Shown here: positions 14,744 to 25,473 of the stretch, in pieces
Layout: every line of letters begins with the position of its first letter
Position numbering within the stretch: the stretch's first letter is position 1
The notes under the pieces: generated by a model
The model's input: the letters and a program-made list of their open reading frames with translations, nothing else
The model's database searches: none
Told to the model about the DNA's origin: nothing
IMG/VR virus record: IMGVR_UViG_3300033067_000311
Span: 1-25,473 of that record
DNA length: 25,473 nt
Reading direction: 5' to 3' (one strand)
From: a virus
Taxonomy: Duplodnaviria > Caudoviricetes
Translations under genes and position numbers: made by a program

Positions 14744-17700
14744 ATGCCACAGATCATCGAAGTCCCCGGAATGGGCCATGTGTCATTTCCAGACGGGATG
14801 ACCGATGCAGACATTTCCGCGGCTATCCAGCGGAACATGGCGCCCAAGGGTCTCGATTTTTTCGACCCGCTTTCCCCGACTAGCGTCAAGCGTGCCGCAG
14901 ACAGTCGGACGCCGCCGGACGTACCCAGCATGGGCGGGTCGTTCGCGCGCGAGGCAGCGCGATCCGTTGGGCCGGGTCTTGTCGGATTCAAGGCGGGTGC
15001 CGCATCCGGTGCTGCCCTTGGCGCGGCAGGACTCAACCCGGTGACGGTTGCGGCTGGCGCGGTGATCGGCGGTGTCGGCGGGTTCATGCTCAGTCGCAAG
15101 GTGTCAGACGAGGTGGCTGATGCCATCGCGCCAAACTCGTTCATGGGCACCAAGTCAGCGGAAGCCGACATGGCAGCGAACAAGTGGTCCACGATGCTCG
15201 GTGGCGCCATTGGCGGCGGCGGTGCTCCAGGCCCGCTCCGCGGTGTCACAGCAATCCCGAAACTTTTCACCACCGGCGGCAGACAAGCACTCACCGCCGG
15301 CTTGCGCGAGGGCGCGCCATTGGCAGCCCGCCAGGCATCGAGCGACATCATGGAGCCGCTGATCGGAGCGGGTGTCGGCGCGGGTCTTGGCGCTACGCAT
15401 GGAGCAGATGCCGCTGGCGTGGCCGAGCAAGCAGGGCTTGGACTGATTTTCAACCGCGGATGGATGCACCGGGTAGGTCGCACGCCGCAATCACTTCCCA
15501 CGGATTCGCAGAATGGTGTGCAGGGAGAACCTGCAACGGGGTCGTTGGCGGGAGACGGCGTTATCCCCCATGAAACAAATGCGGCCGTGGGAACTCGTGA
15601 CAATCCATCGCGCGCTTTCGCGATCATGGAGGCGAACGCGCTTGCCAACCGACTCAAGACCGGACAACCGCTGGAGACACCAACCCCCCCCGCCGCGCCG
15701 GAACCGCTGACATTCGATGGCGGTCCCGTCGTGCGCGGGCCAGTGGTGCGTGGTCCAGTTGTCGAGGGGCCAGTCGCGCGCGGTCCGATTGTCGAGGGGC
15801 CGCGTGGTCCGGTCGTCGGTGAAGCCATGCCCCGCGAGGCATGGCAAGGACCGCTCGCGCCGCGCGTCGAGGGACCACGAGTGCGCGGGCCGCAGATCGA
15901 CTCCCCGACAATGGATGGCCCGCTTGCCCCGCTCGTTGAAGGTCCGCGTGTGGGCATGGACGCGCCAGTCATCGCGCGCCCGCTGGCTGTCCGTGCCCCC
16001 GAGGTGCTCGCGCCGGATGGTCCGACGATGCTTGGCCCATCCGTTGACCGGCCGTTCGTCGATGGGCCACTCGGTCAAGAGGTGCTTGGGCCGCCCAAGA
16101 TCAAAGTGGGGCAGGACATTTTCACAGACACAGACAGCCCGTTGGCATCAACCCGGCTTGACCCCGCGTCAAGGCAACTTGGCGGCAAGCCATTCAACTC
16201 GACCGACATCGCTGCCCGCTTGCGAGCGCCGGCAGAAGCCCCCGCAGCGCCGGAGCCACCCGCGCCCGCTATCGCGGCGGAGGTCTCGCGCCAGATTGGC
16301 AACCAACAGTTCAACTCGACGGACGTGGCCGCGCGGATGCGCGCGCAACAGGAGGTTCAACCAACTATTAGCCCCGAGGCTAAATCTCCATCACTGCCTG
16401 ACGTGCCCGCCGTGCCCGCTACGCCAGAAGTAGCTCCACTCAAGGGCACCGTCGCACTGGCCACCGGCAGGCTGAACGCCGCTAAGAACCAACTCGCCAA
16501 GCTCGAAGCGAGCGGCAAGGCGACACCGGATCAACTCGCCAAGCGGCGTGCGTCCATCGCCACGCTCGAAGCGCAGATCAAAGCCGCACAACCGGACGCC
16601 CCCAGCAGAGAACGGGAACTTCAAAAGCGGGTGAGTGAGGTGCATGACTCCGGCGAGTTCGATCTTGTCGGTCGTATCCGCGAAATGGGTGGATTTGCGC
16701 CGCAAGGTAAGGAGGCTGGGCTGATCGAGGTGAACGCCCGCCGCGGTAGAAAACTCAGCGAGAAAAACCGCAAGGTGGCTGCCGGGTTCGGTGAGACCCG
16801 CGATGACGCGGCCCGCGCAAGCGACTTCCCTGACACGCCTGGTGGCAACCTGGCGGCGGCCACGCTGCGGAGTCTTCACAACAAGTCATCGACAGCACTG
16901 ACCGCGGACAAGATGGCCGAAGCTCTTGGCATGACAGTCCGCGACTTCCATGCGAAGCTCAATGCGGAGCTGGAGAGCATCCACCGCAACAACGGACCCA
17001 AGGCGAACGAGTATGACGTGCTGATGGCGCGCCAAGAGCGGCAAGCTGTCGATCTCGAGAAGGCTGTGGAGAACTCTCACCCTGATGACATAAGCACTCC
17101 TCGTGCGGAGGGTCTGGAAAAAGGTGACACGTTTGTCATCGACGGTGAACCGATCAAGGTGATCGAGTCAGACGGTGAGACCGTCACGCTCCGCGATGGC
17201 GAGCGGTTCGGCGAGCAGACGGTATCAAATGATACTCCGATCCCGATTGAAAAACTGACATCGCCCGCCCGTGTCCGCACGGCAGAGGAAATTGCCGCGC
17301 AGAAGGAGATGGATGCGGTGGCCGACAGCGAGGCGCGGGCACGCGCAGACTCGGAAATCCCCGCGGATGATGCTATTGCAGCAAAAAATGCGGAGGATAG
17401 TTCCGCGGAGTCCGCGAAAGTCGCAGACGACTTCGCACTCAAAGCGCATGAGTCAGACGCCGAGATTCTCGCAGAGAAGAAAGCGGCAGAGCAGAAAGCT
17501 GAACTTGCCAAGCGTCAGTCGGCACGCCTCAAGGGTGACGCCGGCGACCTGACGCCTGACATCTTCGGTGAAGGTGACACCCCGCTGTTCAACGAGCACC
17601 GCGACACGCCGCAACAGAAGTCGATACTCGACGGTCTCAAGGCGCACCGCGACGACGTGGACAACTGGCTGAAAAGCGAGAAGAAGTCGGGCCGGTTGAA

Positions 17701-21441: not shown

Positions 21442-21639
21442 ATGAGCGAACCAACAAGCCCCAAGCCAGGCCGCCCCGCGAGCGGCATTACCAAAGTGAA
21501 GCCCGGACTGACAATCGACCGGAAGATTGTCGCGAGGGCAAAGAAAGCCGCGTTCCGACAAAACATGAGCCTGTCCGCTTTTGTGGAGCGCAGCATCGCT
21601 TGTTTTCTCGAAGCGCAGAAAGCGGAGGTTGCCCCATGA
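21442..21639 (+). CDS. ribbon-helix-helix transcriptional regulator
   Basis: KVKPGLTIDRKIVARAKKAAFRQNMSLSAFVERSI is a beta-strand plus two helices of RHH pattern, preceded by an AT-hook-like PKPGRP. First gene after the operators. Confidence 0.75.
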   Translation: MSEPTSPKPGRPASGITKVKPGLTIDRKIVARAKKAAFRQNMSLSAFVERSIACFLEAQKAEVAP

Positions 21640-21878
21640 TTGCCCACGTCGAGTTGTCGCTGGATGACGCACAACGGATCATCGCTGCGGCGACCGAGGC
21701 TGCAACCGAGCGCATCTTGGCAGAGGTTCTCCTGACCATTCAGGAAGCCGCAGACATGCTCAAGGTATCGACCGCGACCCTCAACCGCTTGCCGGTCCAT
21801 AGAGTCAAGCTGGGCGGTGCCACCCGATACCGCAGGCAAGACATCCTTGCCCACATTCAAGCGAGTCTTGAAAAATGA
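21636..21878 (+). CDS. excisionase-like helix-turn-helix protein (HTH_17 type), 80 aa
   Basis: LLTIQEAADMLKVSTATLNRL...VKLGGATRYRRQDI. ATGA overlap at 21636 with GGAGG 7 nt upstream. Confidence 0.85.
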   Translation: MIAHVELSLDDAQRIIAAATEAATERILAEVLLTIQEAADMLKVSTATLNRLPVHRVKLGGATRYRRQDILAHIQASLEK

Positions 21879-21885
21879 AAAACCT

Positions 21886-21962
21886 TTCCCCCGCCGTGAG
21901 GGTGGCGACCTCCGATGCCTGACCAACGAATTGAGGCGGTCTTAAAATGAACGGCGGGGGAA
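21886..21962 (+). other. structured intergenic element closed by a perfect 12-bp inverted repeat
   Basis: TTCCCCCGCCGT (21886-21897) / ACGGCGGGGGAA (21951-21962) enclose 53 nt with short internal stems. Confidence 0.55.
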
Positions 21963-21977
21963 TCCAAATTTAGAACC

Positions 21978-22241
21978 ATGAGACGATCCGAAAAAATCTA
22001 CCATCAGGCACGGCACGAGGCGCTGCTGTCTGTGATGTTCTCGGCAATGAGTGTGGCCGGGTGTGTATGGGCGGTGAGGGCTTGGTTGAGCGTGCCTGCC
22101 GGGGGGCTGGCTGCGTTTGCCTTGTCCCTCATCGCCCTATTCCCTGCCGCCGCGCACGCCCGCGAGTGCTCTCGCCTGCTCAACATGGCAAAGCGCGAAT
22201 CCGACTACGAGGCAAGGCGCTCGATCAGACCGCGCATCTAA
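21978..22241 (+). CDS. small membrane protein, two predicted TM helices
   Basis: Hydrophobic ALLSVMFSAMSVAGCVWAV and GGLAAFALSLIALFPAAA segments, with basic termini. Confidence 0.7.
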   Translation: MRRSEKIYHQARHEALLSVMFSAMSVAGCVWAVRAWLSVPAGGLAAFALSLIALFPAAAHARECSRLLNMAKRESDYEARRSIRPRI

Positions 22242-22251
22242 CCTTTCCAAC

Positions 22252-22973
<722 letters not shown>

Positions 22974-23036
22974 TTCATTCAATGTCCGGCCTGCTGGGTA
23001 ATCCCGGCAGGGGCTAGCCCGGACACCATTCAAATC

Positions 23037-23066
23037 GCCTCACCCTGCTAGACGGGGTGGGGCTTT
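23037..23066 (+). terminator. hairpin, possible weak terminator
   Basis: GCCTCACCCTG / CGGGGTGGGGC form an 11-bp stem (2 G-U pairs) with a 5-nt loop and only TTT after it. Confidence 0.45.
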
Positions 23067-23079
23067 CCGGGCAAAAACC

Positions 23080-23586
23080 ATGCCAACCATCGCCGAGATC
23101 ATCGCCGCCAAGAAAGCCGCCGCAGCAAAGGACGAGCCAAAGTTGTTTGATGCACTGGCAGAGAAAATGGCCAATGCCAAACAACGGATTGACGATTCCG
23201 ATGCCGAGTGGAAGGAAGCCATAGACCGCATTGACCCGCCGGGAAAGCACAAGGCGGCAGCCATCGTGCTCTCAGCATCGACACCCATGCAGCCGGCGGA
23301 GATCGCGCAGAAGGCTCACTACGCGGAGGAGCGCAGCCTGTCCCGCAGCCGGGGAGAGGCAATCCCGATGACGCCGACAGCCGCAGACAAGGAGGTGGCG
23401 ACGTGGCACGAGGCGCTGAATGCGTTCGAGTCGAGTCTGTGCATCATGCGCGACCCGAAGGAACCGGACGTGGTGTGGCTGGCGATTCGCCCCGACCGGG
23501 AGGGACTGCCTCCACTGCTGGTTCACCGCCTGCCGGTGCTGGTGTGGGATCACCCGACAGCCACCTACCGCAGCGAGCCGTTCTAA
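23080..23586 (+). CDS. hypothetical phage protein, 168 aa
   Basis: AACCATG start, phage-like codon usage, co-directional with neighbours. Confidence 0.75.
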   Translation: MPTIAEIIAAKKAAAAKDEPKLFDALAEKMANAKQRIDDSDAEWKEAIDRIDPPGKHKAAAIVLSASTPMQPAEIAQKAHYAEERSLSRSRGEAIPMTPTAADKEVATWHEALNAFESSLCIMRDPKEPDVVWLAIRPDREGLPPLLVHRLPVLVWDHPTATYRSEPF

Positions 23587-23759
23587 CGATCACCGAGCGG
23601 CTGGCACTTGAAGCCCGCCAACGGCGCGAGAAACCAATCCCCGACGACGAATGCGAGACATGCCATAGGAGATGGAGACGCGGGTTGCTCAAGACCTGCT
23701 GTGTCTGCACCGGGCACATCAATCTGACAGACAGGAATTTTTTCCCAAGAACACCATGA
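23580..23759 (+). CDS. possible small Cys-rich (CxxC...CxxC) protein, start uncertain
   Basis: 3' part of track ORF 23403-23759 (LTITERLALEARQRREKPIPDDECETCHRRWRRGLLKTCCVCTG) fills the gap, and its TGA overlaps ATG 23756. Confidence 0.4.
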   Translation, partial: VLTITERLALEARQRREKPIPDDECETCHRRWRRGLLKTCCVCTGHINLTDRNFFPRTP

Positions 23760-23953
23760 GCAAAGACCACAGAACCTACGAACCGCAGGACTTCGATGAT
23801 GTCAGAGAAGATCCTTACCGCTGCCCGAAGACCGACCGCTACGAGCGCGAGCTTGAACGTGCCGACTACTTGCGCGACGAGCGCAAAGACCGGGAGTGGG
23901 AGGCTGCGGTTGAGGCGTCTGAACGCCGCAAGGAAAAGGAGGGTAAGCCATGA
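23756..23953 (+). CDS. hypothetical charged protein, 65 aa
   Basis: MSKDHRTYEPQDFDD...ERADYLRDERKDRE; ATGA overlaps at both ends. Confidence 0.7.
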   Translation: MSKDHRTYEPQDFDDVREDPYRCPKTDRYERELERADYLRDERKDREWEAAVEASERRKEKEGKP

Positions 23954-24198
23954 TCTCGCCCGAACTCATCGCCGCCGCCAAGGCTGAGATTGCCAAGCTC
24001 CAGAAGGAGGCGGCCATCGCGCAACTCTCACCCGAAGACCAAGCACTGATGAAGAAATACCCACGCCACACGCTCGCGGCTGCACGGTTGATAGACAGCA
24101 CGCCACTTGCGCGCGGAATCACAGGCTGCCGTTCCGCCTTCGACCTAATCCAACTGCAAGAACGCAACAACTTCCACATCACAGACGACCACACATGA
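23950..24198 (+). CDS. hypothetical protein, 82 aa
   Basis: AGGAGG upstream; ATGA-coupled on both sides. Confidence 0.7.
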   Translation: MISPELIAAAKAEIAKLQKEAAIAQLSPEDQALMKKYPRHTLAAARLIDSTPLARGITGCRSAFDLIQLQERNNFHITDDHT

Positions 24199-24956
24199 AA
24201 ACAGACACCATGACAGAACCCGCCACACTCATCCTCGCTGGCTCCGGCTACGAGCTTGCCATCGCTCCCGAAGCGGAGAAGCGCAAGGCCGAGTTGCTTA
24301 AGATTGCGACCGCCGTGCGCCACGTCCGCGACAATCAGGAATCATCAGAAGCGCAGTATCACTTGCGCAACCTGGCCGCCATGCGGATCGAGGTTGAAAA
24401 ATCCCGCAAGATTATCAAGGAGCCGGTCATCCGCATCGGCAAGCTGATCGAGGCCGCTGCCGCCAACTTCATTGCCGATCTAGTGAACGAGGAGAAGCGC
24501 ATCGCGAAGCTCGTCGGCGACCATGCGGAAGAGGTGGTGAGAATCAAGCGCGAGAAGGAGGCTGCCGAGCGCAAGGCATTCGATGTAGCACGGGCCGCGC
24601 GTGAAGCCGCGGAGGCCGCTGCCGCTGCGGCGGAGAACACTGGCACCATCGCCGACGTGATCGCTGCGAAGAAAGCCGCGGCCGAGCGCGAGGAGACGCT
24701 GGCCGCGCGTCTGTCTGCATCCACTGAGGTTGCCGAGACCCGCATTGCCGATGGCGTGCGCTTCGCTTGGGACTTCGAGGTGGATAACATTGCCAATGTG
24801 TATCGGGCCGCACCGGAAATGGTGACGATGGAAATCAAGCGCGCCGCCGTGTTGTCATGGCTCAAGGTATTGGAAGAATCCGACGCCGATCCCGTTGCTG
24901 CTGCCTCGCTTATTGGCATCCGCGCGTTCAAAAAAAACGTAGTATCAACCCGCTGA
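24195..24956 (+). CDS. coiled-coil phage early protein (loosely Gam/Gp157-like architecture), 253 aa
   Basis: EVEKSRKIIKEPV...GKLIE coiled coil, Ala/Glu linker and a C-terminal WDFEV...GIRAF beta module, a layout common in phage recombination regions. Confidence 0.6.
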   Translation: MKTDTMTEPATLILAGSGYELAIAPEAEKRKAELLKIATAVRHVRDNQESSEAQYHLRNLAAMRIEVEKSRKIIKEPVIRIGKLIEAAAANFIADLVNEEKRIAKLVGDHAEEVVRIKREKEAAERKAFDVARAAREAAEAAAAAAENTGTIADVIAAKKAAAEREETLAARLSASTEVAETRIADGVRFAWDFEVDNIANVYRAAPEMVTMEIKRAAVLSWLKVLEESDADPVAAASLIGIRAFKKNVVSTR

Positions 24957-24972
24957 AATCCCCACCGAACCA

Positions 24973-25053
24973 ATGACTATGAAAACACAAGAAGTGAAGG
25001 CATGGAACGCTAGGGCTGTGACGCCCGGAGAGAAAGGAAACGCCAATGAGTGA
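24973..25053 (+). CDS. 26-aa leader ORF running into the first attC-like site
   Basis: Hand translation MTMKTQEVKAWNARAVTPGEKGNANE. The stop lies inside the attC loop, just after the next gene's ATG at 25046. Confidence 0.5.
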   Translation: MTMKTQEVKAWNARAVTPGEKGNANE

Positions 25054-25097
25054 AACTGAAAAGCTAGTCCGGGTCGATCACCAGCCCCTTGTTGTGC
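25002..25097 (-). mobile_element. integron attC-like recombination site 1 (96 bp)
   Basis: Minus strand: R'' GCACAAC, 5-bp spacer AAGGG, L'' GCTGGTGA (8 nt), TCGACCCGGA, loop, TCCGGGCG, L' TCACAGC (7 nt), 6-bp spacer CCTAGC, R' GTTCCAT. Confidence 0.8.
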
Positions 25098-25444
25098 CTC
25101 TTAATTTGTGGCTGCAATGGCATGGTGACGGCAACCCCGAAGATGACGGCGAGGTCTGCGAAAGCGAAGTGACCTGGTGCCGCGAGAAAATCTTTGATCA
25201 CGACGTTGAATATGTCCACGCCGACGAAATCCGCCGCGCCCTCATGGGACATCGCCGCTCCGAACTGTGGGGCGATACCGGACTGATCGCCGCCACCATG
25301 CGATGCGTCGAAGCGGTGGGGAAGTTGGAAGACCTCTACGCGCAAATGGACCCAGAAGGATTCTTCGCTCGCAAGATCGCGGCAATTCTTAAGCACAACG
25401 CTAGGGCTATGCCGCCCTCAACTGAATCAGACGATGGGAAGTAA
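25046..25444 (+). CDS. cassette-borne phage hypothetical protein, 132 aa
   Basis: AGAAAGGA plus ATG inside attC1. The core PLNLWLQW...EVTWCREKIFDHDVEYVHAD looks like a phage-type small domain. TAA lies inside attC2. Confidence 0.75.
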   Translation: MSETEKLVRVDHQPLVVPLNLWLQWHGDGNPEDDGEVCESEVTWCREKIFDHDVEYVHADEIRRALMGHRRSELWGDTGLIAATMRCVEAVGKLEDLYAQMDPEGFFARKIAAILKHNARAMPPSTESDDGK

Positions 25445-25473
25445 CAGCACAGCTATTGAGGGTCGGGCATCAG
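25393..25473 (-). mobile_element. integron attC-like recombination site 2 (truncated by window edge)
   Basis: + strand GCACAAC GCTAGGGCTATGCCGCCCTCAA ... TTGAGGGTCGGGCATCAG. Shares AACGCTAGGGCT with site 1, and the arms pair with the same three bulges. Confidence 0.75.
25434..25473 (+). CDS. probable start of next cassette gene (partial)
   Basis: ATG 25434 lies in the attC2 loop just before the TAA of the previous gene and reads MGSNSTAIEGRAS, open to the edge. Same layout as attC1. Confidence 0.45.
   Translation, partial: MGSNSTAIEGRAS

Follow-up and report, generated by a model that had tools for sequence, protein, structure and literature searches.

Integrons are known as bacterial devices, the attC recombination sites of which have the layout R''-L''/L'-R', extend over 57-142 nt and are crossed over between the A and the C of an AAC triplet (Bouvier et al., 2009; PMC2727003). 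Clusters of attC sites have also been described in phages, and the accessible text of that survey reports three complete integrons, one In0 and 17 CALINs in 10,705 phage genomes as well as recombination of five out of six phage sites with IntI1 (Qi et al., 2023; PMC9892861). CALINs are regarded as being mobilised in trans, at least in the part of a 2024 review that deals with them, and phage attC clusters had been read as rare captures. From our point of view, the right-hand end of the phage contig analysed here, which in its entire length of 25,473 nt is referred to as the window, very probably represents an integron-type cassette together with the start of the next one, in which the gene runs antisense to the attC top strand and in which a 391-bp unit would be excised, inserted and reordered by an IntI integrase. 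The first-pass annotation of this DNA had considered a phage-resident attC array unusual. This holds for the layout, but not for the presence of such sites as such, as phage attC clusters have been published (Qi et al., 2023; PMC9892861, as far as its text extends). What appears to be new is the flipped gene layout in a phage integron variant, phage attC arrays themselves being already known.

All coordinates that had been reported for the locus were borne out. The two related palindromes begin with AACGCTAGGGCT at 25006 and 25397 and lie 391 bp apart. Site 1 (25002..25097, with the minus strand as top strand) was identified by a geometry detector and a covariance model, and all 15 positions of its hairpin pair, from 25015 with 25085 onward, once C25082, A25077 and T25074 are looped out. 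Site 2 (25393..25473, likewise on the minus strand) ends one base into L'' at the contig end, and here too 15 of 15 positions pair, from 25407 with 25473 onward, with C25471, G25466 (or G25465) and T25463 being extrahelical. Read on the minus strand, site 1 shows the full attC spacing that had been proposed for it, R''-5-L''(8)...L'(7)-6-R' over 96 nt, with R'' at 25097-25091, a 5-nt spacer, L'' at 25085-25078, the stem and loop, L' at 25021-25015, a 6-nt spacer and R' at 25008-25002; its bottom strand, which carries the three extrahelical bases, is the + (coding) strand. The R' box of site 2 occupies 25399-25393, and the 7-mers GTTGTGC (25091-25097) and GCACAAC (25393-25399) are exact reverse complements of each other, with the R boxes fitting the consensus at AAC/GTT only. 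The predicted completion of site 2 by a GTT is found in the copy at locus L007, which is identical at 74 of 77 nt and ends with CAGCCCCTTGTT, and in run X1 a contig of 114 nt is free of mismatches to 25397-25473 and extends 37 nt further.

Site 1 is the sole match of the geometry detector in the window, and no match was obtained in order-2 Markov shuffles of 303,435 nt and of 355,380 nt. The attC covariance model, a check that the first-pass annotation had asked for, matched site 1 exactly (25097-25002, minus strand; 21.6 bits, E ~7e-4 by a rough calibration), and this was the only one of its three matches in the window below E 0.1. As the 17 chromosomal Verrucomicrobiales sites in the model had been picked with the same geometry detector, two of them being misaligned at one end, the model is only partly independent. 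Altogether it gave 47 matches in 15 loci, every one of which is an array-bearing locus, and it did not match the truncated site 2, which is too short for the model. Folding energy alone was not significant (z -0.8 to -1.6), Rfam gave no match at the locus, and the two sites were not among the top repeat families of a repeat finder.

The R''-L'' arm of either site has three extrahelical bases, in agreement with the rule of two or three such bases and a T 6-8 nt from the first. At the place of the canonical extrahelical G in L'' the bottom strand shows a C, and the RYYY/RRRY flanks are relaxed. Since chromosomal Verrucomicrobiales sites adjoining an IntI show an extrahelical C in 45 of 52 cases and RYYY in 5 of 52, we regard these features as a lineage trait and not as a bar to attC identity. 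With regard to the recombining strand, the strand given by the detector agrees with the one validated by Qi et al. for attC2 of TJE1, the R' AAC is succeeded by a G on the + strand of both site 1 and site 2, as it is in 52/52 chromosomal and 94/95 viral sites, and the junctions in related loci are located at the R' AAC. Recombination of the minus strand, which shows a bulged G, was considered as well and was rejected, since the bulge arm, the conserved T, the G after AAC, the host arrays and the junction positions all speak for the + strand.

From the homology borders and the crossover rule of Bouvier et al. (2009), a 391-bp cassette can be delimited at 25008..25398 on the + strand, which comprises the site 1 hairpin and the gene body, with predicted crossovers between the A and the C of AAC at 25007/25008 and 25398/25399. 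The window itself holds one real attC-bounded cassette, the array, attI and integrase being known from relatives only. The unit has complementary R boxes at its ends and moves as a unit in relatives; the usual cassette layout, in which a sense gene is followed by its own attC, is absent. Its gene (25046..25444, + strand, 132 aa) is antisense to the attC top strand, its first 16 codons lying within site 1 and its last 15 codons within site 2. The ATG at 25046 stands in the loop of site 1, 7 nt past a Shine-Dalgarno-like AGGA at 25035-25038 (together 25035..25048, + strand), and the stop codon is found in the loop of site 2, 8 nt past another ATG at 25434, from which a reading frame leads on to the following cassette beyond the contig end. 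A mini ORF of 26 aa (24973..25053, + strand) reaches into site 1, its stop lying 8 nt past the start of the cassette gene. It may act as a leader for translational coupling, and the AGGA/ATG in the loop would be used for translation. The integron-type reading of the first-pass annotation is supported by these data, whereas an antisense gene that is read through both hairpins had not been part of it.

The cassette protein has 58 homologues (a single-protein locus search for its gene in viral contigs confirmed 0 of 8 candidates; an alignment search was successful). Their conserved core starts with L-V, encoded by the CTT GTT of the right-hand GTT, and ends with H-N, encoded by the CAC AAC of the GCACAAC box; the tails beyond H-N differ in 35 of 40 homologues, and the heads are of the site-1 type in 20 of 51. 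Neither a PHROG nor a Pfam family could be assigned to the 132-aa protein, and Pfam also found none in 32/32 aligned members. The best ESM Atlas score of 0.85 is a lead only, and the AlphaFold model reached a pLDDT of 54.

The antisense polarity is not peculiar to this one gene. Viral arrays contained 100 antisense, 8 sense and 18 unclear units (n = 126), and when viral loci were merged by common sequence, 28 of 32 clusters were antisense, one was sense and three were tied. Verrucomicrobiales chromosomal arrays near an IntI, by comparison, had 40 sense, one antisense and nine unclear among 50 units, to which 11 of the 21 examined loci contributed, and an array from Acidobacteriota (L212 in genome G049) is mostly sense too. 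Pfam matches among viral-array ORFs were obtained for 14/77 antisense versus 2/80 sense ORFs, the latter both belonging to one HTH cassette, which means that true sense cassettes exist but are rare. A single cassette shared by two phages (L082, 12852-13082, and L070, 7290-7520) carries its HTH gene in the usual sense orientation; the HTH sense cassette is possibly host-derived or regulatory. The genes are antisense as well in AT-richer arrays with ACAT/ATGT boxes (L130, L136, L147 and L166), so that the layout is not limited to Verrucomicrobia-style sites. A hairpin ATG that opens a frame into the next hairpin is present in 38 of 102 viral units, compared with 7 on the other strand, and in 3 and 1 of 45 chromosomal units on the respective strands.

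Cassette-precise gain, loss and reordering, which had been expected for relatives of this phage, were indeed observed. The 4 nt inside the unit ends are complementary in 92/127 viral units, against a mean of 4.0 and a maximum of 11 in 1000 shuffles, and complementarity inside a single hairpin is found in 6/127 only. For the cassette of the window, homology to other contigs begins at 25005-25007, and the body stops at the GCACAAC box, after which a different hairpin follows. Cassette homologues at the DNA level were examined in 15 loci, 12 of which have a readable 5' core: the site-1-like left arm is kept in eight of them (22-23 of 26 nt) with seven different flanks before it, and in the other four another hairpin stands in place of site 1. 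Where the 3' end is readable, a different sequence follows the R box in 8/8 loci, with 6-11 of 26 nt agreeing with site 2. In run X3, the match of one contig begins at 25007, and in a contig of run X1 other DNA is joined to a site-2-type hairpin at 25397. The 391-bp circle that had been predicted did not turn up, as no joint from 25398 to 25008 was present in runs X1-X4, which were represented by contigs only, a form of data that drops rare forms.

Reordering is seen between two near-identical phages, L066 and L067, which share blocks of 96-100% identity. A 741-bp methyltransferase cassette is the eighth in one and the third in the other, with AAC at both borders, and the moved methyltransferase has 245 aa in one place and 258 aa in the other because the next hairpin supplies its C-terminal tail. 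Another cassette is present in the middle of L066 only, the ends near intI diverge up to the AAC of the attI-like site, and one 127-nt hairpin precedes two different bodies in the two loci. Among other cassettes, 5/5 informative pairs out of seven have the gene accompanied by its upstream hairpin, and three of these pairs represent one methyltransferase family. A hairpin change at the GTT side is not accounted for by bottom-strand recombination alone. A further attI-like site, accompanied by one cassette, is found in L066 (1940-2613) at a distance of about 3 kb from the main array; the attC there has the opposite orientation, and the R boxes are complementary. DNA methyltransferases make up 8/77 ORFs in the related arrays, two of them being one cassette, and this cargo suggests counter-restriction as one putative use.

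The contig is linear, about 59% complete by estimate, and encodes a terminase, a P22-like portal, an SU10-type capsid protein and adaptor, and a CHAP endolysin, followed by early genes on the + strand. The last backbone gene 5' of the cassette region (24195..24956, + strand) codes for a 253-aa protein without a family match in Pfam or PHROG; it has 41 relatives among viral contigs, and attC sites lie downstream in 5 of the 31 that have at least 2 kb of sequence there. Arrays are patchy among phages with the early genes of the window, one of which (G002) has six sites, the first being a homologue of site 2, and attC arrays are absent from three complete relatives sharing these genes. The structural genes of the window have no relatives among the fetched loci of related phages (tblastn, E 1e-5), so that the kinship is one of early genes and attC style only. 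The early genes at 21442-24956 have many relatives with 45-72% identity and the structural genes at 441-20611 are unmatched there, complete genomes included, which points to an early module that is common to different virion types. The contig further contains a run of AAC repeats at 22250-22280, directly before the start of a 230-aa gene, and proline-rich GP repeats at 15700-16100 inside a 1955-aa virion-region protein, where a long antisense ORF overlaps the repeats.

The claim that the phage carries a whole array can be maintained for related phages, which have 2-12 sites per array, but not for the window, where only one cassette and the incomplete site 2 are present. Neither a tyrosine recombinase nor an intI is encoded on the contig, and the window lacks an attI-like motif; the side on which intI would sit lies beyond the contig end. 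In relatives, proteins encoded directly downstream of arrays reach 180-313 bits on TIGR02249, with VchIntIA (2a3v) as the best solved relative, and both the catalytic motifs and the IntI insertion are preserved in these phage IntI-like proteins. In G004, 12 sites are followed by a 349-aa protein with TIGR02249 as its best family at 180 bits (cut-off 265), and the IntI-like genes after the arrays in G021, G027-G030, G033, G034 and G042 score 185-313 bits; the cut-off of 265 is passed by 1/27 records (G042). The tyrosine recombinase of G002 is not an IntI. In a quick tree, which leaves out L065, L259, L251, L213, L070 (cut short) and L066 (near copy), five phage-type IntIs stand on their own long branch and two on another. 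Only two of ten array-bearing virus records that are at least 90% complete encode an IntI, so that most of these phages would depend on an IntI acting in trans. At the 5' end of intI there is an attI-like motif, the R box of which is complementary to the last attC in 9/12 loci. Together with the placement of intI, this means that intI, attI and attC are arranged in the usual geometry and that the genes alone are reversed; as the cassette genes point towards attI, Pc could not drive them.

Two further loci deserve mention here. In L070 (9994-10144), the array continues directly into the final 46 codons of an intI, and the R box found at this transition agrees with the last attC, which looks like cassette insertion at a secondary site inside intI. 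In the virus Rctr41k, a gene annotated as xerD (L235, 4680-5678) carries the IntI insertion, and neither the detector nor the covariance model found an attC array in this virus despite the IntI-like protein. With respect to the host, a Verrucomicrobiales MAG holds an array of the phage type, and 41 of 101 genomes of that order pass the IntI cut-off. Based on the style of the sites and on two MAG contigs, the host is likely to be a member of the Verrucomicrobiales. Two chromosomal arrays (L244 and L243) lie downstream of intI and in the same direction as intI, unlike the other nine.

Taken as a working model, the IntI protein would be provided from beyond the contig end, by the likely Verrucomicrobiales host or by a co-infecting phage, and would act on the coding (+) strand, folding it and cleaving it at the AAC of every hairpin. 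We infer that it is also IntI that does the cutting at site 1. Recombination between the folded + strands of the two sites would free a 391-bp circle, with the R boxes pairing perfectly, and cassettes would enter or reinsert at attI, presumably at the far end of the operon. Transcription would come from a phage early promoter rather than from Pc, and the hairpin loop could serve as a ribosome entry point that couples the translation of neighbouring genes: because the hairpin precedes its own gene in reading direction, it would bring the start codon, and the next hairpin would lend the stop. Past the contig end, CCCCTTGTT would be expected, followed by more minus-strand sites and then perhaps by attI and intI on the + strand.

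Two other explanations can be imagined for the hairpins, namely that (i) they descend from attC sites and form part of a relic cassette, most of their shuffling in this phage now being due to homologous or annealing-type recombination wherever hairpins and gene ends are similar, with no help from an IntI; or (ii) they are RNA elements, such as processing, stability or translation-control stems, at the gene borders of an early operon, their likeness to attC being incidental. The former has several observations on its side, as the integrase is missing from the contig and from 8/10 near-complete array-bearing records, hairpins are exchanged at the GTT side, and a relative in runs X1 and X2 that replaces the cassette has its joints at 24969 and 25381, away from AAC. 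It would also fit the degeneration that is seen among the loci with cassette homologues, which affects the left box in L280 and L282 and the whole site in L283 and L284. We nevertheless consider it unlikely, since junctions are found at AAC even beside an unrelated hairpin (6-11 of 26 nt alike), where there is no homology for recombination to use. Moreover, the complementarity of the R boxes has remained intact in the 391-bp cassette and in the 92 of 127 units, and attI and IntI adjoin arrays of the same style.

The complementarity is equally difficult to reconcile with the idea of RNA elements, as it spans the unit and not the single hairpin (6/127), and so are the fixed 5/8/7/6 spacing and bulge positions, the restriction of all covariance model matches (47 in 15 loci) to array-bearing loci, the lack of an Rfam match at the locus and the weak folding z-scores. 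A location in the transcribed sense of the operon, together with start and stop codons inside the hairpins and a through frame in 38/102 units, would be expected of such elements, and yet we consider this explanation highly improbable. The IntI-driven cassette with an antisense gene hence stays our preferred reading.

If this is correct, phages would appear to operate an integron in favour of early accessory genes of their own, including methyltransferases, and the reversed gene polarity would let the early operon read the cassette genes. Phage integrons of this kind would be a site-specific source of mosaicism that has been overlooked, and equally one of variation in counter-defence. The arrays would further provide natural test material for the question whether the choice of the attC strand is independent of gene direction, and they touch on the question of cassette origin, with the same hairpin on different gene bodies and R-box complementarity restored. 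One could speculate that a group of phages has domesticated a mirror-image integron with phage-specific IntI and attI, hairpins that also act as modules for translation start, protein tails that change with every reordering, and grafting of hairpins onto new gene bodies at the R'' box. We put this forward tentatively and regard it as somewhat doubtful; if true, the phage array would be a place where new cassettes are made.

Compared with described systems, the closest counterparts are the phage CALINs and integrons of Qi et al. (2023; PMC9892861), which according to the accessible text likewise consist of attC clusters mostly without an integrase and carry methyltransferase cargo. The genes of TJE1, the sole phage of that study that was compared for orientation, are sense, whereas the cassette gene of the window is antisense and read through the hairpins. 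The complete integrons in that study are described in its text as host-type captures, whereas five phage-type IntIs stand on their own long branch here; shuffling between related phages, as seen in the present analysis, has no mention in the text (PMC9892861) as far as accessible, and no description of antisense phage attC arrays was found in the open-access literature. With the chromosomal integrons of the Verrucomicrobiales (11 arrays adjoining IntI), the phage arrays share the attC style, the spacing, the extrahelical C, the relaxed R boxes and the cross-unit R-box complementarity (45/50), and their intI is mostly divergent from the attC top strand. The chromosomal genes are sense, however (40/50, one antisense), in contrast to those of the phages, and a through frame from a hairpin ATG is rare there. 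No cassette bodies common to the phage set and the Verrucomicrobiales integrons were detected in a small sample (tblastx, E 1e-6).

In comparison with the class 1 and Vibrio attC sites, as covered in the available part of Bouvier et al. (2009; PMC2727003), site 1 agrees in its layout, in an R''-L'' arm with three extrahelical bases, the T lying 8 nt from the first, in the G after the R' AAC and in a length within 57-142 nt. It differs in that the first extrahelical base is a C instead of a G and in that, unlike in those sites, the bottom strand is the coding strand and the site lies upstream of its own gene and holds the start codon. Finally, integrons with an inverted integrase are described from Treponema and other Spirochaetota in the accessible parts of two reports (Cury et al., 2016, 10.1101/030866; Ghaly et al., 2022, 10.1101/2022.02.06.479319), in which intI is co-directional with the cassette genes, as it is in the phages analysed here. 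In Spirochaetota, however, it is intI that is flipped relative to attC, whereas in the phages the geometry of intI and attC is the usual one and it is the genes that are flipped.
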